From NCBI RefSeq assembly GCF_044324875.1, contig NZ_CP172186.1: a stretch of 64,000 bases of DNA. The stretch is one strand, 5' to 3'. Shown one piece after another: positions 12,430 through 62,389 of this stretch; the first letter of the stretch is position 1; the number at the start of each line of letters is the position of its first letter. The stretch comes from Escherichia coli. GTDB lineage: Bacteria > Pseudomonadota > Gammaproteobacteria > Enterobacterales > Enterobacteriaceae. The notes below the pieces were generated by a model that was given only the letters and a program-made list of their open reading frames with translations, did not search any database and was not told the DNA's origin. The position numbers and the translations under genes were made by a program.

Positions 12430-12864
12430 ATGAAAACTGAACTGACCCTGAATGCCCTGCAGTCCATGAACGCACAGGAATATGAAGATATCCGTGCTGC
12501 GGGAAGCGATATGCGCCGTAATCTCACTCACGAGGTGATGCGTGAAGTGGACGCACCGGCTAACTGGATGATGAATGGCGAGTATGGCAGTGAGTTCGGG
12601 GGCTTTTTCCCCGTCCAGGTTCGTTTCACGCCAGCCCACGAACGTTTCCACCTGGCATTATGTTCGCCGGGAGACGTCTCTCAGCTCTGGATGCTGGTTC
12701 TGGTGAGTGGTGGTGGACAGCCTTTCGCCGTCGTTCAGGTGCAACATATCTTCACGCCTGTCGCGATCAGTCACACGCTGGCGCTCGCCGCGACACTTGA
12801 TGCGCAGGGATACAGTGTTAACGACATCATTCATATTTTGATGGCAGAAGGAGGTCAGGCATGA
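12430..12864 (+). CDS. psiB: plasmid SOS inhibition protein PsiB
   Basis: 144 aa [27 protein letters not shown]...[32 protein letters not shown]...; near-identical to recalled PsiB. Confidence 0.9.
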
Positions 12865-13071
12865 GCGCATGCAAAATGGCATCTGAATCGATCGCAGTTT
12901 GGCATTCGAATCGATCATGATTTGGCATCCATCTCCGATCACAGTTTGGCATCACAATCGATCACGATTTGGCATGCTTCCGATCATTGATTGGCATCCT
13001 GCCAGTCACTCCGGGAATTAACTCTTTTCACCACAGTCTCCATTGCCGTGTTTAAACCAGTGGAGACGTCA

Positions 13072-14637
13072 ATGTCCAGAAAGAGAAAATCCAGGAGCAC
13101 TATGGAAACCTGTTTTAAGATCCTTCAGCTCAAGTTCGACAAGAAGCTGACTAACCGTTGTATCGGACTGACGTTACACATCAGCGCCTCAACCGTTTTT
13201 GAGGTTCTTGCCCGCTTCAAAGCCTCTTCTCTGTCATGGCCATTACCTGCTGATATATCCCATGACACGCTGGAGAAACTCATTTTTCCGCCCAAAGACA
13301 CCTTTGCATCAGAGCTTGTAATGCCTGACATGTTGTACTTCGATACGGAAATGAGAAAACCAGGTGTGACGCGGCAACTGTTGTGGATGGAATACAAGGC
13401 ACAGGCGGGTAACAAAGCGATGGGATACTCGCACTTCTGCCGTTGCTACCGGGAGTGGAAAAAAACGCGACGTCTCTCCATGCGCCAGGAGCATCGTGCC
13501 GGCGAAAAGCTTTTTATCGACTTCTGTGGTCCTACGGTTCCTGTTATTAATCCGGACACCGGTGAGATACGCCGCGTGGCAATCTTCGTGGCCGTAATGG
13601 GGGCGTCCAACTATACCTACGTTGAAGCGTGCGAAGGTCAGGACATGATGTCATGGTTAAATGCCCACAGCCGTTGCCTGACCTTCCTGGGCGGCGTACC
13701 GAAGCTGCTCATCCCCGATAACCTCAGAAGCGCAGTGAAAAAGGCCGATCGATATGAGCCTGTCATCAACGACAGTTATCAGGCACTGGCTGAGCACTAT
13801 GGCACGGTTATCATCCCGGCCCGACCACGCAAACCTAAAGATAAACCAAAAGCAGAAAACGGCGTCCTCATCGTTGAACGATGGCTTCTTGCCCGCATCC
13901 GTAATGAAACCTTCCACACGCTCAGGGCGCTGAATGCGCGCCTTAGGGAGTTACTGACAGACATGAATAACCGGCCAATGAAGGGGTACGGCAATCAAAC
14001 CCGTGCAGAACGCTTCCGCATACTGGATGCGCCAGCACTCTCTCCGCTGCCTCTGGCACCTTATGAATACACGGAATACAAAGCTGTGAAGGTTGGCCCT
14101 GACTACCACGTTGAATATGCCCGTCACTGGTACTCCGTTCCACACGAACTGGTCGGTCAGCGTCTGTCACTGAAGGCGGGGCAGTCGGTGGTACAGCTCT
14201 GGCACAAGGGGCAGTGTGTGGCGCAACATCCGCGCAGCACACATGAATATAAACACACAACCAATCCGCTTCACATGCCAGAGCGCCACCGGCAGCACGG
14301 GACATGGACACCGGAACGCCTGATCGAGCAGGGAAAACGTACGGGCCCGTCCACAGGCCGGGTGGTTGAATCCATGCTGAAGGCAAAACCCCATCCGGAA
14401 CTGGCTTATCGTGCAGTTCTGGGGCTGCTGGCACTTCAGAAAAAATACGGCCCGGAACGGCTGGAAAAGGCCTGTTACGTTGCCCTGCACTATAACGCCC
14501 CTGACAGACGCTTTATCGACAATCTGCTGCGTCACCATCGGGAGAACCTGGAGCTTCCATTATCCCGCCAGGGCGAACAACATCCGGCATATGCTTCAGA
14601 GCATGAAAACCTGCGTGGTCCGGGCTACTACCACTGA
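13072..14637 (+). CDS. istA: IS21-family transposase IstA
   Basis: ~521 aa, HTH N-terminus and DDE integrase core; start chosen at MSRKRKS after GGAGACG RBS. Confidence 0.85.
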   Translation: MSRKRKSRSTMETCFKILQLKFDKKLTNRCIGLTLHISASTVFEVLARFKASSLSWPLPADISHDTLEKLIFPPKDTFASELVMPDMLYFDTEMRKPGVTRQLLWMEYKAQAGNKAMGYSHFCRCYREWKKTRRLSMRQEHRAGEKLFIDFCGPTVPVINPDTGEIRRVAIFVAVMGASNYTYVEACEGQDMMSWLNAHSRCLTFLGGVPKLLIPDNLRSAVKKADRYEPVINDSYQALAEHYGTVIIPARPRKPKDKPKAENGVLIVERWLLARIRNETFHTLRALNARLRELLTDMNNRPMKGYGNQTRAERFRILDAPALSPLPLAPYEYTEYKAVKVGPDYHVEYARHWYSVPHELVGQRLSLKAGQSVVQLWHKGQCVAQHPRSTHEYKHTTNPLHMPERHRQHGTWTPERLIEQGKRTGPSTGRVVESMLKAKPHPELAYRAVLGLLALQKKYGPERLEKACYVALHYNAPDRRFIDNLLRHHRENLELPLSRQGEQHPAYASEHENLRGPGYYH

Positions 14638-14653
14638 CAGAAGGAACAACAGT

Positions 14654-15409
14654 ATGAGTGATAACCTGTTAAACAAACTGACCCAACTGAAACTCCCGGC
14701 GATGGCCGGGAGCCTGATACGGCAGCGGGAAACGCCTCAGACCTACGACGAACTGTCGTTCGAGGAAAGGCTGACGCTGCTGGTTGATGACGAGCTTCTG
14801 AGCAGGGAAAACAGCCGTGTGGCACGGTTGAGAAAAAATGCCGGCCTGAAATACCAGGCAACACCGGAAGGGCTGCGCTATCCGGCCTCAAGAGGTCTGC
14901 GGGCTGAACAGATGAGAGAACTGCTGAACGGCCACTACATAACCCACAGGAAAAACCTGCTGATAACCGGTCCGACAGGATGTGGCAAGAGCTGGATAGC
15001 CAATGCGCTGGGCGAACAGGCATGTCGACAGAAACACAGCGTCCGGTACTGTAGAACCGGGCGATTACTGGAACAACTGGCTCAGGGACGTGTTGATGGC
15101 AGCTGGCTGAAATATCTGAAACAGTTGCAAAAAATACAGGTTCTAATCCTGGACGATCTGGGGCTGGAACAGTTAAGTAACGCCCAGTGTAATGACCTTC
15201 TGGAGCTCATAGAGGATCGTTACGGACAAAGCAGCACGATAGTGGTAAGCCAGTTCCCGGTAGATAAATGGCATGGTCTGATGGAGAACCCAACAACAGC
15301 AGATGCCATCCTGGACAGACTGGTACATAACTCACACCGAGTGGTCCTTCAGGGAGAGTCACTGAGGAAAAATCCCCCGGTAGTGGAAAGCAGCGAAAAA
15401 ACGCGTTAA
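14654..15409 (+). CDS. istB: IS21-family helper ATPase IstB
   Basis: 251 aa; Walker A LLITGPTGCGKSW, Walker B ILILDDLG. Confidence 0.9.
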   Translation: MSDNLLNKLTQLKLPAMAGSLIRQRETPQTYDELSFEERLTLLVDDELLSRENSRVARLRKNAGLKYQATPEGLRYPASRGLRAEQMRELLNGHYITHRKNLLITGPTGCGKSWIANALGEQACRQKHSVRYCRTGRLLEQLAQGRVDGSWLKYLKQLQKIQVLILDDLGLEQLSNAQCNDLLELIEDRYGQSSTIVVSQFPVDKWHGLMENPTTADAILDRLVHNSHRVVLQGESLRKNPPVVESSEKTR

Positions 15410-15509
15410 AAAGCGGTAGAAAAAGTTAAGTTCCCGGTTGATCGAATGGATGCGAATCGCTGATCGGACTTCGATGCCAATCCGTGATCGAATAGAGCGG
15501 AATACGCAA

Positions 15510-16225
15510 GCGCACGTTCACGGGCACTGATCCCCCTCAGCGCAGAACAACAGGCCGCTATGCAGGCTGTGGCTGTCACCGAACAACGTCGTCGTCAGGG
15601 ACGCACACTTTCAGCATGGCCTTATGCCACCGCTTTCTTTCGCTGCCTGAATGGCAGTCGCCGGATTTCGCTGACCGATCTCCGCTTTTTTGCCCCTGCG
15701 CTGACGAAGGAGGAATTTCATGGCAACCGTCTCCTGTGGCTGGCTGCAGTGGACAAACTGATTGAAAGTTTTGGTGAAGTCTGTGTTCTTCCCCTGCCAT
15801 CCGATGCGGGGCATCGTTTGTTCCCGTCCGTTCCTTTTCGTGAAGGTGAGCGGCGTCGTCAGAAAACCACGCTGACAGAGCAGAAATACAGCCGCCAGCG
15901 GGAACGTGAGGCAGAACGACGGGAACGGGAATACCAGACATGTTTTGCTCAGGCGCAGATTGACCTTGCGTTTCATACTCCCGCCACGGTCGGAAGCTGG
16001 TTGTCCCGCTGGTCTGGTGTTGTTGAGGAGCATGATCTGGAAACGATTTTCTGGGGGTGGTGCGGGCGTTTTCCATCACTGTCATCATTTGACCGGTTTT
16101 TCTGGCAGGAGGAACCACTCTGGCGGTTGATTTTTGAAGCCGGTGAGGCCGGTCGTGGTGCACCGGTACAGGTACGTGCACTTGAGCAGTGGATGATCCC
16201 GAACAAGCTGGAGAACGTAATATGA
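15510..16225 (+). pseudogene. psiA: plasmid SOS inhibition protein PsiA, separated from its first three codons (12861..12869) by the IS21-family insertion
   Basis: Joining ATGAGCGCA to the sequence after the IS gives MSARSRALIPLSAEQQAAMQAVAVTEQRRRQGRTLSAWPY..., matching PsiA. Confidence 0.8.
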
Positions 16226-26600: not shown

Positions 26601-26854
26601 GAGCCTGTTTAAGATTCTGTGTAAATGCCTTTCTCAGAAGTGACCGTCCAGGCGGTCACCGAACTCGATAATAAAGCGGCTCATTGCCATTCGCCAGTCC
26701 TTCAACGGCATCGTCCATTTCCGGGACGCAGACTGGATTGCCAGCCACACCACTTTTTTCACCGAGTCGTCTGTCGGGAACACTTTACGCTTTTTGATCG
26801 CATGGCGGATCACGCTGTTTAGCGACTCGATGGCATTCGTCGTATAGATCACTT
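26601..26854 (-). mobile_element. IS256-family element, right-end fragment with transposase C-terminus
   Basis: 72-aa ORF 26634..26852 ...TNAIESLNSVIRHAIKKRKVFPTDDSVKKVVWLAIQ... typical IS256-family Tnp C-terminus. Confidence 0.7.
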
Positions 26855-28144
26855 TGAACCGCCCCGGAAATCCTGGAGACTAAACTTCCTGAGAAAGATG
26901 TAAACAGGATGACTAAAAATACTCGTTTTTCCCCCGAAGTCCGTCAACGGGCAGTTCGTATGGTTCTGGAAAGCCAGGGCGAATATGACTCACAATGGGC
27001 GGCAATTTGTTCCATTGCTCCAAAGATTGGCTGTACGCCAGAGACCCTGCGTGTCTGGGTTCGCCAGCATGAGCGGGATACCGGGGGCGGTGATGGTGGG
27101 CTCACCACCGCTGAACGTCAGCGTCTGAAAGAGCTGGAACGCGAAAATCGTGAACTGCGCCGCAGTAACGATATCCTTCGCCAGGCTTCCGCTTATTTTG
27201 CGAAGGCGGAGTTCGACCGCCTCTGGAAAAAATAATGCCACTGCTGGATAAGCTGCGTGAGCTGCAGTGAGCTGCATATTGCCCCGTCAACGTATTACCA
27301 CTGTCAGCAACAGCAGCATCATCCTGATAAACGCAGCGCCCGTGCGCAGCGTGATGACTGGCTGAAGAAAGAGATACAGCGCGTATACGATGAAAATCAC
27401 CAGGTGTACGGTGTGCGTAAAGTCTGGCGTCAGTTGTTACGGGAAGGTATCAGAGTGGCCAGATGCACTGTGACACGTCTTATGGCGGTTATGGGTTTTG
27501 CCGGTGTTCTCCGGGGTAAAAAGGTCCGCATTACCGTCAGCCGGAAAGCCGTTGCCGCAGGCGACCGCGTAAACCGTCATTTCGTGGCAGAACGTCCTGA
27601 CCAGCTGTGGGTGGCTGATTTTACTTACGTCAGCACATGGCAGGGCTTTGTTTATGTGGCGTTCATCATTGATGTGTTTGCCGGATACATCGTGGGATGG
27701 CGGGTCTCCTCGTCCATGGAAACGACATTCGTGCTGGATGCACTGGAGCAGGCGTTGTGGGCCCGTCGTCCGTCTGGCACCATCCATCACAGCGATAAAG
27801 GCTCTCAGTATGTATCGCTGGCCTACACGCAGCGGCTTAAGGAAGTCGGATTACTGGCATCAACAGGGAGCACAGGCGACTCGTATGACAACGCGATGGC
27901 GGAGAGCATCAATGGTCTTTACAAGGCGGAGGTAATACACCGTAAGAGCTGGAAAAACCGGACAGAAGTGGAGCTGGCTACACTCACGTGGGTGGACTGG
28001 TATAACAATCGACGATTGCTGGAAAGGCTGGGCCATACTCCCCCGGCAGAAGCAGAAAAAGCTTATTATGCTTCCATCGGAAACAATGATCTGGCAGCCT
28101 GAGTTCACAGACAAAACATTCTCCAGGAAACCCGGGGCGGTTCA
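26855..28144 (+). mobile_element. IS629/IS1203-like IS3-family element, copy A (small internal deletion, frameshifted orfB)
   Basis: Ends TGAACCGCCCCGG...CCCGGGGCGGTTCA; orfA 26909..27235, orfB remnant 27257..28102; ~20 bp missing at orfA/orfB junction relative to copy C. Confidence 0.85.
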
Positions 28145-30394: not shown

Positions 30395-31981
30395 AGAGTA
30401 AGGAACTTACTGATTCATTTAATATTATTATCCATCAATAACTGAGCATACAAAAAAATAACAAAACTCTGACACAGATACAACCAGCTCTCTCTATATC
30501 AGACTGACATTCTTCTCAAAAAGAGGCGTGTTCTGGAACACGGAACAGAAGCAATGAACATTGTAGACAGAAACACACTCTGTTTTTTACACGAGGATAT
30601 ATGTCGGGAAAATCAGGCAGAAGAAATTAAAGGACTTTGTGCATACAAAGGGAAAGCGCGTTTCCGGTGCACCATATTAGATATTATCCCTGCTACAAAC
30701 ACCAGAGACGCGCTCATAACTCTTCTAGCGTAAAATATCCTTTCAGGCAAGGAAAAGGTCGTGATACAGAATCACGACCTTAATTTTATCGAAAACACGG
30801 ATTTTAGTATGCACATGACTGTACTCCTCAGGAGTACAGGGAAATCATAATCAGTAACAAAAACACCCGGCAACAAAAATTTAACGCGTTTACGCTATTT
30901 TTGTGACAAATATTGCAAATATGGAATCACTGTATTTTTACTGCAACAAAATCTGGTTGATCCACAGGCGGATCCGGGGTAAAAAATTATCCGGAATGTT
31001 TCTGCGTGGTGTGGTAAAACCTCTAGCCGGATTGCCTTTGCAGCAACGCAGGAACATTCCATCCTTTATCAGTACTCCTGACGCTGTAAAGACCTGGCTG
31101 ATGCAGACAGGACTGCTGATATCGAATCAAAGCTTTCTCATTTTTTCGCGTACACAAAATAAAACAAATCAGGCAATTCCTTACACTCCCCCTCTAAAAT
31201 TGAGGGTTTTTTTTTACCATATAAATTACTTGCACAGCTTTTAAAAAAATTGCAAATCTTTACTGTAGTGTCGGGCTTCATGTAGCTCAACAGGGCATGG
31301 ACTAAAAAGAAGTAAACCCATCTTTTATCTCCCTGATATGGGGGTCTTTGTGGCATAAAGAATTCCTTGAATTATTATTTTGATCATATCAACATGAAAA
31401 GAATAATACTCTGACTTTTGATTTCCAGTGCCAGATATAAAATCAAATTCACTGTAAATATCACATAATGATATCTGGCTGCCCCCAGTCACTTCCTGTA
31501 TTCAGCCACACATATAAGCCCCCTGAATTTCCTTGTGGTTTTTATGTGATAAAAACCACAAGGAAACGATGGTTGAAATAATATTTAAAATGTGAAAGAT
31601 ATCACCCGTAGAATTTTTCAATCCGACACTCCATAGAATGGACCTTTAAGATTTAATCCTCATCATGTATGAGGATTTTTTTTCTGGCAGACAAAAATAT
31701 CTTTTCAGCAATCCCTGTTCAGTTCCGGTTCTGGTGACTCTGGAAGAGGTATTGTTACACGCTATAACCTGCCGGAATGACTCAGGTCCGTTCATCTCTG
31801 ATACCATTAAAAGAAGCATTAAGCACATTCTGAGCGCCTCTTACAGAAGAAGCGGAACGCGTTCCTGGCTCCTGTTGCATAATCTTACTAACCCCATGGT
31901 TTTCTTGACTGCCAGAAACGCGCCCACAGTTTTTTTAGCCTGTCTCCGGTTCCTTGTCTAGAATACTGTTGATTTTTTGTT
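30395..31981. other. AT-rich non-coding segment with three plus-strand intrinsic terminators and a 13-bp-arm palindrome
   Basis: No convincing ORF; hairpin+T-run at ~30760..30790, ~31188..31218, ~31663..31693; palindrome CCTTGTGGTTTTT-ATGTGAT-AAAAACCACAAGG ~31530..31565. Confidence 0.5.
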
Positions 31982-33163
31982 TGAACCGCCCCGGGTTTCC
32001 TGGAGAGTGTTTTATCTGTGAACTCAGGCTGCCAGATCATCGTTTCCGATGGAAGCATAATAAGCTTTTTCTGCTTCTGCCGGTGGGATATGGCCCAGCC
32101 TTTCCAGCAATCGTCGATTGTTATACCAGTCCACCCACGTGAGTGTGGCCAGCTCCACTTCTGTCCGGTTTTTCCAGCTCTTACGGTGTATTACCTCCGC
32201 TTTGTAAAGGCCATTGATGCTCTCCGCCATCGCGTTGTCATACGAGTCACCAGTACTTCCTGTTGATGCCAGTAATCCGGCTTCCTTAAGCCGCTGTGTG
32301 TAGGCCAGCGATACATACTGAGAACCTTTATCACTGTGATGGACTGTGCCGGACGGTCGACGGGCCCATAACGCCTGCTCCAGAGCATCCAGCACGAATG
32401 TCGTTTCCATAGACGATGAGACCCGCCACCCCACGATGTATCCGGCAAACACATCAATGATGAACGCCACATAGACGACCCCCTGCCATGTGCTGACGTA
32501 AGTAAAATCAGCCACCCACAACTGGTCAGGACGTTCTGCCACAAACTGACGGTTTACGCGGTCGCCTGCGGCAACGGCTTTCCGGCTGACGGTAGTGCGG
32601 ACCTTTTTACCCCGGAGAACACCGGCAAGTCCCATAACCGCCATGAGGCGCGCCACTGTACATCTGGCTACCCTGATTCCTTCCCGTAACAACTGACGCC
32701 AGACTTTACGCACACCGTATACCTGATGATTCCCATCGTATACGCGCAGTATCTCTTTCTTCAGCCAGTCATCGCGCTGCGCACGGGCACTGCGTTTATA
32801 AGGATGATGTCGCTGTTGCTGACAGTGGTAATACGTTGACGGGGCAATATGTAGTTCACTGCATACCGGTCCGACCCCGTACAGCTTACGCAGCTTATCC
32901 AGCAGTGGCATCACTTTTTCCAGAGGCGGTCGAACTCCGCCTTCGCAAAATAAGCGGAAGCCTGGCGAAGGATATCGTTACTGCGGCGCAGTTCACGATT
33001 TTCACGTTCCAGCTCTTTCAGACGCTGACGTTCAGCGGTGGTGAGCCCGCCATCACCGCCTCCGGTATCCCGCTCATGCTGGCGTACCCAGACACGCAGG
33101 GTCTCTGGCGTACAGCCAATCTTTGGAGCAATGGAACAAATTGCCGCCCACTGTGAGTCATAT
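31982..33163 (-). mobile_element. IS629/IS1203-like element, copy B, 5'-truncated
   Basis: orfB 32024..32914 intact; orfA loses its first ~30 codons at the junction with the IS66-family element. Confidence 0.8.
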
Positions 33164-35855: not shown

Positions 35856-36042
35856 CGGTTACTTCCCGACAGACGACTCGGTGAAAAAAGTGGTGTGGCT
35901 GGCAATCCAGTCTGCGTCCCGGAAATGGACGATGCCGTTGAAGGACTGGCGAATGGCAATGAGCCGCTTTATTATCGAGTTCGGTGACCGCCTGGACGGT
36001 CACTTCTGAGAAAGGCATTTACACAGAATCTTAAACAGGCTC
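35856..36042 (+). mobile_element. IS256-family element, second right-end fragment (inverted relative to 26601..26854)
   Basis: Reverse complement of 26601..~26785 including transposase 3' end. Confidence 0.7.
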
Positions 36043-39669: not shown

Positions 39670-40982
39670 TGTGCTTTTTCCTTGTCGGCGGGATGCTGTT
39701 TTTCGGTGGTTTCGGTGGTTTCGGTGGTTTCGGTGGTTTCGGTGGTTTCGGTGGTTTCGGTGGTTTCACCAGTGTCAGTGTCTTCGTCGTTATCATGGCG
39801 GCGGGGTATCACGTCATCCGTGAGTGACCAGCGGGTCCTGATCTGACGTTTACGATCGCGATCTGGCTGAGGTTCGTCCCATATCAGGCCCAGCCCCAGC
39901 ATGTCCCGTCGAAGCCCTTCAATGGCCTCTTCCACACAGGGTTCCGGGCAGGGGAGGCCGAGACGGCTGGCTTCATTTTCTGCCCGGGCAACGGCCACCA
40001 CGCCGGCCCCTTCGATGAAGCCTTTTGTGGTGTTTGCCCGGTGAAGGGCATAGAAGAGCGTCCGGTCAACGCCCTTGAGCCACAGCCAGTTCGGAGGCGT
40101 CAGGCGCAAATCATGTGCGTAAAGCCAGACCAGACCGCTGCGAACGTAACGGTGCTGCCTGAGCCACTTTTGTGCGCCTTCTGTTTTGATGACCCGGATA
40201 AAGGCGTTTCTGGCCAGTGAATACACCGGCGTGCTGAAACGCCCCTGGTCCCGTTTACTTTTGAGCCTGCAGGAGAGATTGAGGTTGTTCATCAGGGCTA
40301 CCGCTGCTTTCCGGTCACCGAGGAAGAACTGCAGGCCAAAGATGGCAAAGAGCGCTTTTTCATGTGGGGCCATGTCTTTCCAGCTGGTCAGTGGTTGCCC
40401 CAGTTGCGCCATGAAGCACTGGCGTGTGGACGCAACATCGAGCTGCATGTTGCGGATAAGGTTGTTCTGCTCCACAAAGGCTTCGGGGGTTAGTGCGACA
40501 CGGCGCTCGGGACGTTTTTGTCCGTGGAAGAGTCTGTTGTTGTCTCCGTCAGCCAGAACGGGGGCGATCGCCGGTGACAGAGCTGAAAAAATATGGGGCA
40601 GTGTGTGGATATTCAGTGGCCTGCGGGTAAAACGGGGCTGGGCCGGATGGTGAAACCACATCCACAGAAAGCCGAATGTCATGGGAAGCAGAATCAGCCA
40701 GAGGATCCCCACTGTCCGGGACATAACATCCAGCCACTGGCTGAAAGTGATGGTTGCCGCGTTGTTAGCAGTGATGGCCAGCAGGTTGTAACGGGGGACG
40801 GCAAAGTTGTGAAAGGGCCCCCAGTCAATCATGCCCCACAGTGTGTGCAGGATCAGGCAGGAGGCGAAGACGATTTCAGGTAAAAAGCGCCAGATGATAA
40901 TCGCAAAGAGCAGGCATATGGCACCGACGATATACCATATAGCCATTGGATCTTCGGCGGCAGACGTCTGTTGGTAAGACAC
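39666..40982 (-). CDS. trbA: TrbA conjugation protein with C-terminal TET repeat
   Basis: 438 aa, N-terminal membrane segments; ends ...TGETTETTETTETTETTETTETTEKQH... Confidence 0.75.
   Translation of the reverse strand: MSYQQTSAAEDPMAIWYIVGAICLLFAIIIWRFLPEIVFASCLILHTLWGMIDWGPFHNFAVPRYNLLAITANNAATITFSQWLDVMSRTVGILWLILLPMTFGFLWMWFHHPAQPRFTRRPLNIHTLPHIFSALSPAIAPVLADGDNNRLFHGQKRPERRVALTPEAFVEQNNLIRNMQLDVASTRQCFMAQLGQPLTSWKDMAPHEKALFAIFGLQFFLGDRKAAVALMNNLNLSCRLKSKRDQGRFSTPVYSLARNAFIRVIKTEGAQKWLRQHRYVRSGLVWLYAHDLRLTPPNWLWLKGVDRTLFYALHRANTTKGFIEGAGVVAVARAENEASRLGLPCPEPCVEEAIEGLRRDMLGLGLIWDEPQPDRDRKRQIRTRWSLTDDVIPRRHDNDEDTDTGETTETTETTETTETTETTETTEKQHPADKEKAQ
39700..39770. repeat. tandem 9-bp repeat (GGTTTCGGT x ~7) inside trbA
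   Basis: Visible tandem array; encodes the TET repeat on the minus strand. Confidence 0.8.
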
Positions 40983-41438
40983 GGGGATTCCTCCATAGAT
41001 GAATGGATAAATTTCGGGATTAAGTCGGGTGGCATGAATGCGAATCAGCGCCGGTAATAACCGGACAGGAATGAATTCAACAGGACATTTTTACAGAGAA
41101 GAGCGAACGGCAGAAGGTGGTGGGAGACAGGTACAAAAAAACCGACTGGTGAGGCCGGTTTTTTTGCGATTCCGGGGTGGAGTTGGTGGCTCTGACCGGA
41201 GGAAGTCTCTTTTCAGCTAACAATGAGAGAGCTGTTGTGACAGGCAATGTAAGAGTAAGCAGCAGTGATTTCCTCCATTGACGGAGAAACGGATGATTAA
41301 CCTGTTAATCATCGTTCTCAGGGCGGTTGTTGCTGTGGCTAACGCAGTGATAGCTCTCCGGGAACTGGTTGACTGATAATCCCGGAAACGTACTTAAGGG
41401 CAGAGGGTCACCTCCTTCTGCCCTTTAACAAAATATGC

Positions 41439-41615
41439 TCAGGTTAAAAATCGAAAACCTTCCTGCACTTCCTGTGCCTGTTCCCGTGAGCCAAACATGA
41501 GCCGGCTTTTACCCGGAACTCCCCAGGAAATATATTCTACATCCACCCACCATTTTCCGTATTCTTCATACGGTCCGGATATCACTTTAGTGACAAATGC
41601 ATCAATCAGGTTCAT
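41439..41615 (-). CDS. hypothetical small protein (58 aa) not in the ORF track
   Basis: MNLIDAFVTKVISGPYEEYGKWWVDVEYISWGVPGKSRLMFGSREQAQEVQEGFRFLT; GAAAGGTG RBS; IS21-family copy 2 lies ~70 bp upstream. Confidence 0.3.
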   Translation of the reverse strand: MNLIDAFVTKVISGPYEEYGKWWVDVEYISWGVPGKSRLMFGSREQAQEVQEGFRFLT

Positions 41616-41785
41616 TTTTACACCTTTCTGTTATTCTGCTTATTACGACCAGCAGACAGCAAATATTAAAAATAACGCGGCGGTAATGCGTATTCCGCTC
41701 TATTCGATCACGGATTGGCATCGAAGTCCGATCAGCGATTCGCATCCATTCGATCAACCGGGAACTTAACTTTTTCTACCGCTTT

Positions 41786-42541
41786 TTAACGCGTTTTTTC
41801 GCTGCTTTCCACTACCGGGGGATTTTTCCTCAGTGACTCTCCCTGAAGGACCACTCGGTGTGAGTTATGTACCAGTCTGTCCAGGATGGCATCTGCTGTT
41901 GTTGGGTTCTCCATCAGACCATGCCATTTATCTACCGGGAACTGGCTTACCACTATCGTGCTGCTTTGTCCGTAACGATCCTCTATGAGCTCCAGAAGGT
42001 CATTACACTGGGCGTTACTTAACTGTTCCAGCCCCAGATCGTCCAGGATTAGAACCTGTATTTTTTGCAACTGTTTCAGATATTTCAGCCAGCTGCCATC
42101 AACACGTCCCTGAGCCAGTTGTTCCAGTAATCGCCCGGTTCTACAGTACCGGACGCTGTGTTTCTGTCGACATGCCTGTTCGCCCAGCGCATTGGCTATC
42201 CAGCTCTTGCCACATCCTGTCGGACCGGTTATCAGCAGGTTTTTCCTGTGGGTTATGTAGTGGCCGTTCAGCAGTTCTCTCATCTGTTCAGCCCGCAGAC
42301 CTCTTGAGGCCGGATAGCGCAGCCCTTCCGGTGTTGCCTGGTATTTCAGGCCGGCATTTTTTCTCAACCGTGCCACACGGCTGTTTTCCCTGCTCAGAAG
42401 CTCGTCATCAACCAGCAGCGTCAGCCTTTCCTCGAACGACAGTTCGTCGTAGGTCTGAGGCGTTTCCCGCTGCCGTATCAGGCTCCCGGCCATCGCCGGG
42501 AGTTTCAGTTGGGTCAGTTTGTTTAACAGGTTATCACTCAT
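41786..42541 (-). CDS. istB: IS21-family IstB (copy 2)
   Basis: Protein identical to copy 1 IstB. Confidence 0.9.
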   Translation of the reverse strand: MSDNLLNKLTQLKLPAMAGSLIRQRETPQTYDELSFEERLTLLVDDELLSRENSRVARLRKNAGLKYQATPEGLRYPASRGLRAEQMRELLNGHYITHRKNLLITGPTGCGKSWIANALGEQACRQKHSVRYCRTGRLLEQLAQGRVDGSWLKYLKQLQKIQVLILDDLGLEQLSNAQCNDLLELIEDRYGQSSTIVVSQFPVDKWHGLMENPTTADAILDRLVHNSHRVVLQGESLRKNPPVVESSEKTR

Positions 42542-42557
42542 ACTGTTGTTCCTTCTG

Positions 42558-44123
42558 TCAGTGGTAGTAGCCCGGACCACGCAGGTTTTCATGCTCTGAA
42601 GCATATGCCGGATGTTGTTCGCCCTGGCGGGATAATGGAAGCTCCAGGTTCTCCCGATGGTGACGCAGCAGATTGTCGATAAAGCGTCTGTCAGGGGCGT
42701 TATAGTGCAGGGCAACGTAACAGGCCTTTTCCAGCCGTTCCGGGCCGTATTTTTTCTGAAGTGCCAGCAGCCCCAGAACTGCACGATAAGCCAGTTCCGG
42801 ATGGGGTTTTGCCTTCAGCATGGATTCAACCACCCGGCCTGTGGACGGGCCCGTACGTTTTCCCTGCTCGATCAGGCGTTCCGGTGTCCATGTCCCGTGC
42901 TGCCGGTGGCGCTCTGGCATGTGAAGCGGATTGGTTGTGTGTTTATATTCATGTGTGCTGCGCGGATGTTGCGCCACACACTGCCCCTTGTGCCAGAGCT
43001 GTACCACCGACTGCCCCGCCTTCAGTGACAGACGCTGACCGACCAGTTCGTGTGGAACGGAGTACCAGTGACGGGCATATTCAACGTGGTAGTCAGGGCC
43101 AACCTTCACAGCTTTGTATTCCGTGTATTCATAAGGTGCCAGAGGCAGCGGAGAGAGTGCTGGCGCATCCAGTATGCGGAAGCGTTCTGCACGGGTTTGA
43201 TTGCCGTACCCCTTCATTGGCCGGTTATTCATGTCTGTCAGTAACTCCCTAAGGCGCGCATTCAGCGCCCTGAGCGTGTGGAAGGTTTCATTACGGATGC
43301 GGGCAAGAAGCCATCGTTCAACGATGAGGACGCCGTTTTCTGCTTTTGGTTTATCTTTAGGTTTGCGTGGTCGGGCCGGGATGATAACCGTGCCATAGTG
43401 CTCAGCCAGTGCCTGATAACTGTCGTTGATGACAGGCTCATATCGATCGGCCTTTTTCACTGCGCTTCTGAGGTTATCGGGGATGAGCAGCTTCGGTACG
43501 CCGCCCAGGAAGGTCAGGCAACGGCTGTGGGCATTTAACCATGACATCATGTCCTGACCTTCGCACGCTTCAACGTAGGTATAGTTGGACGCCCCCATTA
43601 CGGCCACGAAGATTGCCACGCGGCGTATCTCACCGGTGTCCGGATTAATAACAGGAACCGTAGGACCACAGAAGTCGATAAAAAGCTTTTCGCCGGCACG
43701 ATGCTCCTGGCGCATGGAGAGACGTCGCGTTTTTTTCCACTCCCGGTAGCAACGGCAGAAGTGCGAGTATCCCATCGCTTTGTTACCCGCCTGTGCCTTG
43801 TATTCCATCCACAACAGTTGCCGCGTCACACCTGGTTTTCTCATTTCCGTATCGAAGTACAACATGTCAGGCATTACAAGCTCTGATGCAAAGGTGTCTT
43901 TGGGCGGAAAAATGAGTTTCTCCAGCGTGTCATGGGATATATCAGCAGGTAATGGCCATGACAGAGAAGAGGCTTTGAAGCGGGCAAGAACCTCAAAAAC
44001 GGTTGAGGCGCTGATGTGTAACGTCAGTCCGATACAACGGTTAGTCAGCTTCTTGTCGAACTTGAGCTGAAGGATCTTAAAACAGGTTTCCATAGTGCTC
44101 CTGGATTTTCTCTTTCTGGACAT
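42558..44123 (-). CDS. istA: IS21-family IstA (copy 2)
   Basis: Protein identical to copy 1 IstA. Confidence 0.85.
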   Translation of the reverse strand: MSRKRKSRSTMETCFKILQLKFDKKLTNRCIGLTLHISASTVFEVLARFKASSLSWPLPADISHDTLEKLIFPPKDTFASELVMPDMLYFDTEMRKPGVTRQLLWMEYKAQAGNKAMGYSHFCRCYREWKKTRRLSMRQEHRAGEKLFIDFCGPTVPVINPDTGEIRRVAIFVAVMGASNYTYVEACEGQDMMSWLNAHSRCLTFLGGVPKLLIPDNLRSAVKKADRYEPVINDSYQALAEHYGTVIIPARPRKPKDKPKAENGVLIVERWLLARIRNETFHTLRALNARLRELLTDMNNRPMKGYGNQTRAERFRILDAPALSPLPLAPYEYTEYKAVKVGPDYHVEYARHWYSVPHELVGQRLSLKAGQSVVQLWHKGQCVAQHPRSTHEYKHTTNPLHMPERHRQHGTWTPERLIEQGKRTGPSTGRVVESMLKAKPHPELAYRAVLGLLALQKKYGPERLEKACYVALHYNAPDRRFIDNLLRHHRENLELPLSRQGEQHPAYASEHENLRGPGYYH

Positions 44124-44408
44124 TGACGTCTCCACTGGTTTAAACACGGCAATGGAGACTGTGGTGAAAAGAGTTAATTCCCGGAGTGACTGGCAGGATG
44201 CCAATCAATGATCGGAAGCATGCCAAATCGTGATCGATTGTGATGCCAAACTGTGATCGGAGATGGATGCCAAATCATGATCGATTCGAATGCCAAACTG
44301 CGATCGATTCAGATGCCATTTTGCAGGTAAAAATGGCAATTTTTTTCATGCTGTATTTTTGCCATTTATTTTCTTTGAAATGGTTTTTTTCTTCATATCA
44401 GCAAATAA

Positions 44409-44876
44409 TTATTTCTTATTCTGTTTTCTCCAGGTCCATGGTGGTACCGGATTTTTATCTGCCCATAATCCCCGCTTCAGGGCGCGGGCATCACGCTGGA
44501 GCGGCGGGAGAGTATAGTCATTATTGTAGTCCGGGTACACCCAGGCAGCGCCGTTACGGACCTGCCAGCGATTTGCTTCTGTGCCGTCAGCGGTATAGAC
44601 CCGGCCGAGAATACGGCCATACCTGTCTGTCTGCGCGTATTGCACGGTTACGGGCTTTCCGGCCACCAGGTCCTTCAGCTGAGTGGCTGACCAGCGTCCA
44701 AAGGGCTGTTTCTTTTCCGGTGCATCAATATTAGCCAGACGGACCCTGACAGGCTTTTTGTCCTGTAATATTTCCAGCGTATCACCATCAAGAACGCGGA
44801 TGACGTGCCCCTGAATCTGTGCGGCACAGAGAGAAGCGGAAAAAATAATGGTGAGTGAAAAGATATATTTTATCAT
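44409..44876 (-). CDS. nuc: secreted thermonuclease-type (SNase-like) endonuclease
   Basis: 155 aa, signal peptide MIKYIFSLTIIFSASLCAA, ...RVLDGDTLEI...RVRLANIDAPE... SNase motifs. Confidence 0.8.
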   Translation of the reverse strand: MIKYIFSLTIIFSASLCAAQIQGHVIRVLDGDTLEILQDKKPVRVRLANIDAPEKKQPFGRWSATQLKDLVAGKPVTVQYAQTDRYGRILGRVYTADGTEANRWQVRNGAAWVYPDYNNDYTLPPLQRDARALKRGLWADKNPVPPWTWRKQNKK

Positions 44877-44978
44877 TTCATCGTCTCCTTTTTATTTATG
44901 AAAACAGGTGCAATTAATATTGCGAAATAATAACGTTCAGGTGTGTTTTTTTTGGCAGTGTGATACTTCACGCAGGGC

Positions 44979-45659
44979 ATGAATTCCAGTACGCTGATAT
45001 CCGTGATGATACGGCAACAGATATCCGGTGACGGTATGCAGGAACATATTGATTATCAGATTGAGAAATATCAGTTCAGGGCCAGGAATGAGTCACCGCG
45101 ACTGATGCGCCAGTGGGAAGATGTCATGCGTGAATGCCGTGATACCGGAGCAGGAGCCAGGGAGCGGCTGCGGATTGCCTTACTTAATGTTGATTATGTG
45201 ACCAGTTTTGAACTGCCGTTTCGTCTGCTGTTAACCCGGACACCGCAGATGATTGACAGCGTGCGGCGGGAATGGCAGCTCAGCCAGAAAAAAGTCGTAT
45301 TCAATGAGCGGCAGCGGGGATGTGTATACAGTCTGCAGAATGACTTATCCGGCGTGCCGGATAGCTTCAGTTACAGTCTTGCGACGCGAATACGGCGGGT
45401 GGACAGCTATGGCATGACGACGCGTTGTTTCACTGATATAGCCGGGCAGGTTAAAGCCCCGACAGCACGGCTGAAACTGGCGCTGGAAAGCGGGTTAATT
45501 GTCACCGCGCTGGATGGTCTGTTCTGGCTTGGTATTCAGCGTATTGCCGCAGATGTGCAGCGGCTGCGTCAGTCCGGAATGACAATCATCACCCGGGATG
45601 TTGAGGTCTCAGACTCGCTGACCGGAACCACACGGGTTGTTTCCGGGTACAGACTTTGA
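44979..45659 (+). CDS. hypothetical protein; start uncertain
   Basis: 226-aa ORF. Confidence 0.5.
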   Translation: MNSSTLISVMIRQQISGDGMQEHIDYQIEKYQFRARNESPRLMRQWEDVMRECRDTGAGARERLRIALLNVDYVTSFELPFRLLLTRTPQMIDSVRREWQLSQKKVVFNERQRGCVYSLQNDLSGVPDSFSYSLATRIRRVDSYGMTTRCFTDIAGQVKAPTARLKLALESGLIVTALDGLFWLGIQRIAADVQRLRQSGMTIITRDVEVSDSLTGTTRVVSGYRL

Positions 45660-56842: not shown

Positions 56843-57120
<278 letters not shown>

Positions 57121-57148
57121 TAAACTCCCTGAGAAAGAGGTAAACAGA

Positions 57149-57475
57149 ATGACTAAAAATACTCGTTTTTCCCCCGAAGTCCGTCAGAGGGCGATTCGTA
57201 TGGTTCTGGAAAGTCAGGGCGAATATGACTCACAGTGGGCGGCAATTTGTTCCATTGCCCCAAAGATTGGCTGTACACCGGAGACTCTGCGTGTCTGGGT
57301 ACGCCAGCATGAGCGGGATACCGGAGGCGGTGATGGCGGGCTCACCACCGCTGAACGTCAGCGTCTGAAAGAGCTGGAACGTGAAAATCGTGAACTGCGC
57401 CGCAGTAACGATATCCTTCGCCAGGCTTCCGCTTATTTTGCGAAGGCGGAGTTCGACCGCCTCTGGAAAAAGTGA
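57149..57475 (+). CDS. IS629 OrfA
   Basis: 108 aa [41 protein letters not shown]... Confidence 0.9.
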
Positions 57476-58362
57476 TGCCACTGCTGGATAAGCTGCGTAA
57501 GCTGTACGGGGTCGGACCGGTATGCAGTGAACTACATATTGCCCCGTCAACGTATTACCACTGTCAGCAACAGCGACATCATCCTGATAAACGCAGTGCC
57601 CGTGCGCAGCGCGATGACTGGCTGAAGAAAGAGATACTGCGCGTATACGATGGGAATCATCAGGTATACGGTGTGCGTAAAGTCTGGCGTCAGTTGTTAC
57701 GGGAAGGAATCAGGGTAGCCAGATGTACAGTGGCGCGCCTCATGGCGGTTATGGGACTTGCCGGTGTTCTCCGGGGTAAAAAGGTCCGCACTACCGTCAG
57801 CCGGAAAGCCGTTGCCGCAGGCGACCGCGTAAACCGTCAGTTTGTGGCAGAACGTCCTGACCAGTTGTGGGTGGCTGATTTTACTTACGTCAGCACATGG
57901 CAGGGGGTCGTCTATGTGGCGTTCATCATTGATGTGTTTGCCGGATACATCGTGGGGTGGCGGGTCTCATCGTCTATGGAAACGACATTCGTGCTGGATG
58001 CTCTGGAGCAGGCGTTATGGGCCCGTCGACCGTCCGGCACAGTCCATCACAGTGATAAAGGTTCTCAGTATGTATCGCTGGCCTACACACAGCGGCTTAA
58101 GGAAGCCGGATTACTGGCATCAACAGGAAGTACTGGTGACTCGTATGACAACGCGATGGCGGAGAGCATCAATGGCCTTTACAAAGCGGAGGTAATACAC
58201 CGTAAGAGCTGGAAAAACCGGACAGAAGTGGAGCTGGCCACACTCACGTGGGTGGACTGGTATAACAATCGACGATTGCTGGAAAGGCTGGGCCATATCC
58301 CACCGGCAGAAGCAGAAAAAGCTTATTATGCTTCCATCGGAAACGATGATCTGGCAGCCTGA
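57472..58362 (+). CDS. IS629 OrfB (DDE transposase)
   Basis: 296 aa; ...[13 protein letters not shown]...[10 protein letters not shown]...[15 protein letters not shown]... Confidence 0.9.
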
Positions 58363-58425
58363 GTTCACAGATAAAACACTCTCCAGGAAACCCGGGGCGG
58401 TTCAAAACGTCAGCCACATCACAAA

Positions 58426-62061: not shown

Positions 62062-62067
62062 TTGGAT

Positions 62068-62389
62068 TTGCCCCTATATTTCCAGATACCTGTTATCACT
62101 TAACCCATTACTGGCTTGCTGCCGTAGATATTCCCGTGGCGAGCGATAACCCAGTGCACTATGCGGATGCCATTCGTTATAATGCTCGAACGCCTCTGCA
62201 AGGTTCTTTGCTGCCGTTAACCCGTCTGGTTTGGGCATGACACTGATGTAGTCACGCTTTATCGTTTTCACGAAGCTCTCTGCTATGCCGTTACTCTCCG
62301 GACTCCGCACCGCCGTGCTCTTCGGTTCAAGCCCCAACATCCGGGCAAACTGCCGTGTTTCATTAGCCCGGTAGCATGAACCATTATCC
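62068..62389 (-). mobile_element. IS2 3'-end fragment
   Basis: IS2 right terminus TGGATTTGCCCCTATATTTCCAG and InsD C-terminal ~104 codons. Confidence 0.8.

Follow-up and report, generated by a model that had tools for sequence, protein, structure and literature searches.

The window, i.e. the whole stretch of 64,000 nucleotides that was analysed (Escherichia coli, RefSeq assembly GCF_044324875.1, contig NZ_CP172186.1), carries two copies of an IS21-family element, the second of which (copy 2) lies between the thermonuclease-family gene nuc and a small gene encoding 58 amino acids (orf58). The genes nuc, istA, istB and orf58 follow one another in that order, all on the minus strand. The features relevant here are:

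12870–15508, plus strand: copy 1 of ISSso4, interrupting psiA after its third codon, with an AGCGCA duplication at 12864–12869 and 15509–15514
41133–41220, minus strand: antisense RNA AgrB, the antitoxin in the dqlB module (Rfam RF02891: 51.8 bits, gathering threshold 40, E = 1.2e-7)
41294–41377, plus strand: dqlB, which encodes a DinQ-like toxin of type I (NCBIfam NF041473: 47.2 bits, cutoff 35; RefSeq annotation)
41396–41425: stable hairpin at, and common to, the convergent dqlB and orf58 3' ends
41439–41615, minus strand: orf58, conserved 58-aa gene, phrog_8110 member, predicted small OB-like beta-barrel
41616–41681, minus strand: what is left of the orf58 leader, 66 nt (71 nt with the IRR-side GGTAA at 41682–41686), including the Shine-Dalgarno sequence
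41682–41686: target-site duplication GGTAA, IRR side, found once only in the empty site of pLH50-c-A
41687–44325, minus strand: ISSso4 (IS21 family) copy 2, 2,639 bp, with its IRR end at 41687 and its IRL end at 44325
41786–42541, minus strand: istB, intact, encoding an AAA+ helper ATPase of 251 aa (NCBIfam NF038214: 257.8 bits, cutoff 200)
42558–44093, minus strand: istA, intact, encoding a transposase of 511 aa (NCBIfam NF033546 transpos_IS21: 284.7 bits, cutoff 160)
44196–44318: subterminal array of 23-bp repeats (ATGCCAAA...GATCGA) within the IRL region, from Tandem Repeats Finder and direct view of the sequence
44326–44330: target-site duplication GGTAA, IRL side, read from the sequence
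44409–44876, minus strand: nuc (thermonuclease family), intact (Pfam SNase, E = 6.5e-22; RefSeq WP_000598962.1 in relatives)

A preliminary description of this locus placed an unannotated ORF with a ribosome-binding site about 70 bp from the IS and next to trbA. Such an ORF is indeed present, with a Shine-Dalgarno sequence (AAGGTG, 41621–41626) 5 nt ahead of its ATG and exactly 71 nt (41616–41686) between that ATG and the IS; however, RefSeq already has an entry for it as a hypothetical protein, WP_181664677.1, and its immediate neighbour is not trbA but the agrB/dqlB toxin-antitoxin module, in which a small hydrophobic toxin ORF accompanied by an AgrB antisense RNA identifies a type I system of the DinQ/AgrB type. 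The dqlB gene is convergent with orf58 and is not disrupted by the IS; the hairpin common to the two 3' ends has a minimum free energy of −21.8 kcal/mol on the plus strand and −20 on the minus strand (z = −3.9 and −2.9, respectively). We place orf58 outside the module because each gene occurs without the other, dqlB without orf58 on other plasmid backbones (e.g. 63.5-kb Klebsiella and Citrobacter records) and orf58 without an annotated dqlB in L007. On the opposite side, where nuc reads toward istA, the IS faces nuc with its istA-proximal IRL end, which lies 83 nt beyond the nuc stop codon.

The reverse complement of copy 2 (41687–44325) is 100% identical to copy 1 (12870–15508). Both genes of the element are also recognised by Pfam, istB by IstB_IS21 (E = 1e-60) and istA by Mu-transpos_C_2 above its cutoff (72.1 bits) and by rve slightly below (32.1 bits against 32.6); 16 nt lie between the istA stop codon and the istB start. 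The element termini read TGCAAAATGG... and ...GGAATACGCA, forming imperfect terminal inverted repeats of the type 5'-TG...CA-3', and the array in the IRL region has a period of 23 with 4.3 copies according to Tandem Repeats Finder, or about six by eye, which probably represents multiple IstA binding sites. The element thus shows the features that define the IS21 family, i.e. an IstA DDE transposase, IstB, TG...CA ends with subterminal sites, and a duplication within the range of 4–8 bp. In the IS21 prototype, the IstA transposase is paired with IstB, an AAA+ ATPase that bends target DNA (PMC11208146, PMC10122671); both elements have two genes, TG...CA ends, several subterminal repeats and short duplications of variable length, whilst ISSso4 differs in being longer and in the 23-bp repeat array of its IRL region.

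Membership of ISSso4 is set at a nucleotide identity of at least 95% to the ISfinder reference, and the comparison here was made with the copy on the IncK1 plasmid pCT (NC_014477 / FN868832), which has been named ISSso4 (PMC6361801). Our element is 99.7% identical to that copy over its full length, and in RefSeq such copies carry the label 'IS21-like element ISSso4 family'; by way of the pCT copy and the RefSeq naming, it is probably ISSso4 or an isoform. The pCT element is also 2,639 bp long and agrees with ours in its istA and istB, in its ends and in how it is oriented to nuc, but it is found on the opposite flank of nuc, separating that gene from an HTH gene, and has a 6-bp duplication (ATACTT), whereas copy 2 separates nuc from orf58, has a 5-bp duplication and is accompanied by a second copy that interrupts psiA. 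An exact scan of representative genomes for the IRL tip returned no matches.

The GGTAA repeats flank both ends of copy 2, as the preliminary description had noted, and the comparison with an IS-free relative establishes their origin. When window positions 41287–41686 are joined to 44331–44730, the resulting 800 nt are found exact and contiguous in the IncK2/Z plasmid pLH50-c-A (NZ_CP100501.1), which is 100% identical across the rejoined site and contains the target once. GGTAA is a true target-site duplication, because excision of the IS together with one GGTAA restores the pLH50-c-A sequence, and its length of 5 bp is normal for ISSso4, since in pCT and metagenome loci a further 13 copies derived from ISSso4, whether full-length, of variant length or miniature, have duplications of 4–7 bp. 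The psiB–psiA site rejoined without copy 1 is likewise 100% identical to pLH50-c-A, and both empty sites are contiguous in related plasmids, on the same strand for both in pLH50-c-A. With a separate duplication at each copy and each empty site contiguous in relatives, the sequence comparison upholds the earlier proposal that copy 2 is a simple, independent transposition and not the product of recombination with copy 1. Neither junction was found in PLSDB, among the complete E. coli genomes of RefSeq or in 120 metagenome loci; both ISSso4 insertions are recent and occur in no other sampled record, and the intact istA and istB, together with the identity of the copies, suggest recent ISSso4 transposition activity. 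The picture is of an active-looking ISSso4 with intact istA and istB that entered the 149-bp nuc–orf58 spacer of an IncK2/Z conjugative plasmid, duplicating GGTAA. The IS and the plasmid backbone are both known; what this adds is a previously unsampled insertion site, at which the genes on either side remain intact, in a plasmid lineage whose ISSso4 is apparently active and has also knocked out psiA.

At the IRL junction, the IS tip and its flank together form a perfect palindrome (TGCCATTTTGCA/GGTAAAAATGGCA, 44314–44338), and targeting of a pseudo-IS-end, a neighbouring sequence similar to the end of the element itself, was considered. A metagenome scan supplied 59 independent ISSso4 IRL flanks, in which the best match to the IRL tip averaged 7.08/14 in inverted and 7.03/14 in direct orientation, compared with 7.0 +/- 0.14 (6.93) for a shuffled-motif control, and the 9/14 score of the copy 2 site recurs in 4 of the 59 flanks per orientation (the copy 2 site being counted in the inverted set); the resemblance was accordingly rejected as chance. 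Nor was a preference for AT-rich targets seen in these 59 flanks, their GC content being 0.48.

The IS leaves the coding sequence, ribosome-binding site and 71-nt leader of orf58 unbroken, and the retained leader is shared unchanged by IS-free plasmids and conserved in part in IncI1. The proposed separation of the ORF from its promoter by the IS is not borne out: a consensus scan of the orf58 strand located no sigma-70 promoter in either the retained 71 nt or the intact 149-nt spacer, and conservation between IncK and IncI1 did not place one either. The nuc–orf58 spacer is not significantly structured (z = −0.05) and contains a weak AU-rich hairpin (z = −1.2), and all seven terminator-like sites between 40900 and 45000 are on the plus strand. 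Read-through is possible because the genes are co-oriented and no intrinsic terminator is predicted on the minus strand. Upstream of orf58, similarity between the IncK/Z and IncI1 versions runs to about −115, and because it crosses the insertion point, the insertion may have split a regulatory element of orf58. We infer that orf58 transcription is most likely to change modestly, in that a transcript from nuc would have to cross 2.6 kb of IS to reach orf58, or, alternatively, orf58 would depend on a weak proximal promoter or on istAB read-through. On this account the insertion beside orf58 would cost no plasmid function.

More severe would be silencing, if nuc and orf58 normally share a transcript with orf58 at its distal end and the IS separates orf58 from the nuc promoter, an outcome we consider possible but rather unlikely. 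The outcome of the promoter scan is in keeping with it, and the weakness of the spacer hairpin makes co-transcription with nuc plausible in IncK/Z plasmids; however, the IncI1 orf58 has no nuc upstream, instead following a 390-bp stretch common to it and a divergent gene, and yet its probable orthologue is expressed, which suggests that orf58 has its own promoter. The co-orientation of the IS and the lack of predicted terminators on the minus strand also count against silencing.

Conversely, the IS might raise or rewire orf58 expression, by istAB read-through or by a hybrid promoter at the IRR junction. IS21-type right ends can supply promoter elements at junctions, and here IRR faces orf58 in the same orientation, with 99 terminator-free nt after the istB stop codon. 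However, IS21-family istAB transcription is weak as a rule, and neither the scan nor manual inspection yielded a candidate −35/−10 pair spanning IRR and its flank that would form an outward promoter, so that we regard this outcome as improbable. We are confident that the best explanation is a simple ISSso4 insertion beside a real gene, orf58, with a modest change in transcription as its likeliest consequence and with the un-inverted form of the plasmid in hand.

That orf58 is a chance ORF without function, as its shortness, its 'hypothetical' label and the lack of a match to Pfam, NCBIfam, PADLOC or PDB sequences might suggest, is for practical purposes refuted by a dN/dS of about 0.05 between the IncK/Z and IncI1 versions with strong third-position bias, by the retention of the 58-aa length across 80 diverse homologues, by the phrog_8110 match, by an AlphaFold2 model with a pLDDT of 91, and by the detection of a probable orthologue by proteomics. 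The pattern of substitution indicates a genuine gene under strong purifying selection. The homology search with the 58-aa peptide that the preliminary description had proposed returned many homologues, and the notion of an ORF with no homologs and no transcription fails because of these, of the purifying selection and of the probable IncI1 orthologue detected as protein. Residues 1–57 of orf58 align with positions 1–58 of the 59 of the phrog_8110 HMM (E = 1.3e-18), which is matched by all 80 aligned homologues, and the family comprises 174 cluster representatives at 50% identity. By these matches, the family is common to phages and IncI-complex plasmids; the neighbourhoods of the distant homologues consist of small phage genes of early or replication regions, with no consistent partner and no function inferable by association. 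The predicted fold is a small OB-like barrel, which makes it a candidate relative of OB-fold nucleic-acid-binding domains (eS28, IF1/eIF1A, SSB, RPA, PriB), a class defined by five strands in a beta-barrel, a helix between strands 3 and 4, and demonstrated binding of nucleic acid.

The IncI1 version is 81–83% identical, has the same dqlB–orf58 arrangement and is often annotated with an N-terminal extension of 25–37 aa that is not conserved. By synteny and domain layout, not by sequence, it is the probable counterpart of 'protein 140' (HTE32_RS00140) of the IncI1 plasmid pTF2 (KJ563250), a hypothetical protein encoded between another hypothetical and a HEAT-repeat gene/excA, modelled with a 39-aa disordered N-terminus and a C-terminal alpha/beta domain (PMC12211044); both context and layout agree with the synteny and the non-conserved extension of the IncI1 orf58. 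HTE32_RS00140 was detected by proteomics, with abundance ratios in three comparisons of 2.12, 1.08 and 2.03, i.e. about twofold up in an SOS-hyperinduced strain and with cefotaxime and unchanged with ciprofloxacin, and deletion of the probable orf58 orthologue from pTF2 lowered traF and traM expression (PMC12211044). It is conceivable, though we rate it a long shot, that orf58 and its phrog_8110 relatives are OB-fold nucleic-acid-binding regulators of IncI-complex transfer-gene expression or early establishment, with the ISSso4 insertion as a natural expression variant. The insertion is otherwise routine mobile-element biology; only orf58 itself is mildly interesting, as a real, widely distributed small phage and plasmid protein with expression via its probable IncI1 orthologue.

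The two ISSso4 copies are inverted and 26,178 nt apart. A composite transposon made up of both copies and the intervening 26 kb, or their joint arrival by recombination, would suit identical inverted IS copies bracketing a defined segment, but is refuted by the duplications, the outer flanks being different (AGCGCA and GGTAA) with a matching duplication at each copy and none shared by the outer ends, and by an inner segment and outer flanks that are all IncK2/Z backbone in the order and orientation of pLH50-c-A. The observation that the copies form a substrate for inversion is true but trivial for two identical 2.6-kb copies, the process being RecA-mediated; recombination between them could flip the oriT-containing block psiA'-ardA-oriT-relaxase-trbCBA-dqlB-orf58. 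In the flipped isomer, psiB and the genes preceding it would be the last to reach the recipient. Assemblies of the plasmid may exist as two inversion isomers, and as all four IS-flank junctions are the same in both, short junctions cannot separate them, and only reads longer than 2.7 kb do so. The window holds the parental, un-inverted arrangement, because copy 1 and copy 2 each retain their own duplication, and its order and orientation are as in pLH50-c-A.

The second IS21-family copy, correctly placed by the preliminary description beside a 58-aa ORF (orf58), is an ordinary, recent ISSso4 insertion. It spans 2,639 bp (window 41687-44325, minus strand), has TGC...GCA termini and a 23-bp repeat array at IRL (the istA-proximal end, adjoining 44325), and its reverse complement is 100% identical to copy 1 at 12870-15508, the spacing between the two being 26,178 nt. 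RefSeq names matching copies 'IS21-like element ISSso4 family', and along its full length it shares 99.7% identity with the element of the IncK1 plasmid pCT, listed as ISSso4 (PMC6361801). Its two proteins, which also have Pfam matches (IstB_IS21, E = 1e-60, for IstB; Mu-transpos_C_2 above its cutoff and rve just under its own for IstA), are as follows:

41786-42541, minus strand, IstB, 251 aa (NCBIfam IS21_help_AAA, 257.8 bits vs cutoff 200)
42558-44093, minus strand, IstA, 511 aa (NCBIfam transpos_IS21, 284.7 bits vs cutoff 160)

Each copy carries its own target duplication, GGTAA at copy 2 (41682-41686 and 44326-44330) and AGCGCA at copy 1 (12864-12869 and 15509-15514), and the independence of copy 2 claimed earlier is thereby upheld. 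Removal in silico of copy 2 and one GGTAA restores 800 nt that are exact and contiguous in the IS-free IncK2/Z plasmid pLH50-c-A (NZ_CP100501.1). Copy 1 interrupts psiA after codon 3, leaves psiB, directly upstream, intact, and points the same way as its neighbouring genes (psiB, istA, istB, psiA'); once it is taken out, the psiB-psiA sequence matches pLH50-c-A at 100% identity, and there it shares its strand with the orf58 site. Since each copy has its own duplication and both empty sites are restored in pLH50-c-A, both are simple insertions and the window is the un-inverted arrangement.

The view of the inverted copies as a substrate for inversion holds, although it is generic and the window itself is un-inverted. 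If the copies recombined homologously, the rest of psiA, ardA, oriT and the relaxase genes, pemIK, trbCBA, agrB/dqlB and orf58 would be inverted. Going by the general behaviour of leading regions, psiB and the genes preceding it would in the inverted isomer no longer lie early after oriT in transfer. The four IS-flank junctions are identical in both isomers, so that only reads spanning a whole IS distinguish them. The window also holds an inverted, 100% identical repeat pair of 1,184 nt (31980-33163 and 57223-58406), with one of its arms within the 26-kb segment, and further long repeats at 26601-28144, 35863-36042, 57095-57822 and 62063-62362; all these additional repeats probably represent other IS copies that could likewise mediate rearrangement.

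Neither the orf58-side nor the psiA-side IS junction was present in PLSDB, RefSeq complete E. coli genomes or 120 metagenome loci. This absence and the 100% identity between copies 1 and 2 point to two recent insertions confined to this plasmid's lineage. The pCT element (NC_014477.1; locus L003, 4838-7476) has the same orientation as copy 2, but sits on the opposite flank of nuc, where it separates nuc from an HTH gene instead of occupying the nuc-orf58 spacer, and has a 6-bp (ATACTT) rather than a 5-bp duplication. Two plasmid lineages have thus received independent ISSso4 insertions within ~650 bp of backbone, and no general target signal accounting for both nuc-flanking insertions was found. 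Duplications measure 4-7 bp in 15 ISSso4-derived copies in which one is recognisable (the two window copies, that of pCT and metagenome copies, some of them miniature derivatives), so the 5-bp GGTAA is unremarkable. The IS tip and target flank of copy 2 form a perfect 25-nt palindrome (12+13 nt, 44314-44338), scored as a terminator-like hairpin on the plus strand, which raised the idea of targeting to IS-end-like sequence; this was rejected, as 59 independent insertion sites exhibit no such tendency, nor any AT preference, and the palindrome is coincidental.

The miniature derivatives consist of an IRL tip fused to an IRR tip (the opposite end) and nothing else, and look like MITE-like non-autonomous elements. 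They occupy at least five independent metagenome sites, three distinct sites (four loci) having their own 6-7-bp duplications:

loci L010/L081, 89 bp
locus L112, 89 bp
locus L115, 64 bp
L025 group and locus L037, 65 bp

Only orf58 (41439-41615, minus strand) is of some interest; on sequence evidence it is a real gene. A Shine-Dalgarno sequence (AAGGTG) lies 5 nt ahead of its ATG, and comparison of its IncK/Z and IncI1 versions gives a dN/dS of ~0.05, with 26 of 39-40 nucleotide differences at the third position of a codon. The homology search proposed earlier for the 58-aa peptide, run exhaustively with HMMER, yielded many homologues: at E <= 1e-3 there were 174 representatives of 50%-identity clusters, nearly all 57-60 aa long, so the ORF does not lack relatives. 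IncI1 orthologues are often annotated at 83-95 aa (e.g. L004, 2755-3039; proteins P0011-P0033), with an N-terminal extension that varies by record; as these extensions, present in many records, lack conservation, 58 aa appears to be the true form, and the start codon of the extended records is probably mis-called. Labelled hypothetical in related plasmids by RefSeq, orf58 has homologues in phages of Aeromonas, Pseudomonas and Bacteroides and in crAss-like phages, and all 80 family members in the alignment match phrog_8110, a family of phage proteins with no assigned function. No match was obtained in Pfam, NCBIfam, PADLOC or PDB sequences, and the neighbourhoods of distant homologues contain no consistent partner gene. 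The family is widespread, uncharacterised and, by fold prediction, one of small OB-like proteins.

The gene neighbour closest to orf58 is not trbA, as had been described, but a complete agrB/dqlB type I toxin-antitoxin module (41133-41430) situated between the two:

41133-41220, minus strand, AgrB RNA (Rfam, 51.8 bits vs gathering score 40)
41294-41377, plus strand, dqlB, DinQ-like (NCBIfam match)

dqlB and orf58 are convergent, with a stable hairpin common to both 3' ends; agrB/dqlB and orf58 are independent modules, since either is found without the other in some plasmids. A LexA box has been predicted upstream of dqlB in the IncI1 plasmid pTF2 (PMC12211044); by eye, no CTG-N10-CAG box is evident near dqlB in the window. 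At the 3' end of trbA (39690-39800), 9-bp tandem repeats encode (TET)n at the TrbA C-terminus, and the annotated protein has 438 aa here vs 444, 465, 432 and 420 aa in close relatives.

Copy 2 leaves the orf58 reading frame and its ribosome-binding site unaltered, along with 71 nt of the leader. The proposal that it cuts orf58 off from its promoter is unproven, consensus scanning having placed no promoter on the orf58 strand in the interrupted or the intact spacer; the intact nuc-orf58 spacer also has no significant secondary structure. In IncK/Z plasmids nuc lies 149 nt upstream of orf58, whereas in IncI1 a 390-bp region is shared with a divergent gene instead. As IncK/Z-IncI1 similarity reaches ~-115, past the insertion point at -71, copy 2 may have split a regulatory element. 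Read-through into orf58 is possible, given that nuc, istA, istB and orf58 are co-oriented and all terminator-like sites in 40900-45000 lie on the opposite strand. Judged by sequence, orf58 expression may fall, rise or remain as it was.

The pTF2 supplement orders trbA (RS00125), hypotheticals RS00135 and RS00140, a HEAT-repeat protein (RS00145) and excA (RS00150) (PMC12211044); the IncI1 loci compared share this order, with orf58 directly ahead of the HEAT gene, and by synteny 'protein 140' (HTE32_RS00140) is a probable orf58 orthologue. Figure S5 of that study depicts RS00140 as a C-terminal alpha/beta domain preceded by a disordered N-terminal stretch of 39 aa (PMC12211044), a layout that fits orf58 with a spurious extension, corresponding to the disordered segment. 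Protein 140 was detected with high confidence, which speaks for expression of the gene. Its level was up ~twofold under cefotaxime and in a strain with SOS hyperinduction, but did not rise under ciprofloxacin; in its absence traF and traM were expressed less, while conjugation frequency was unaltered by the deletion (PMC12211044).
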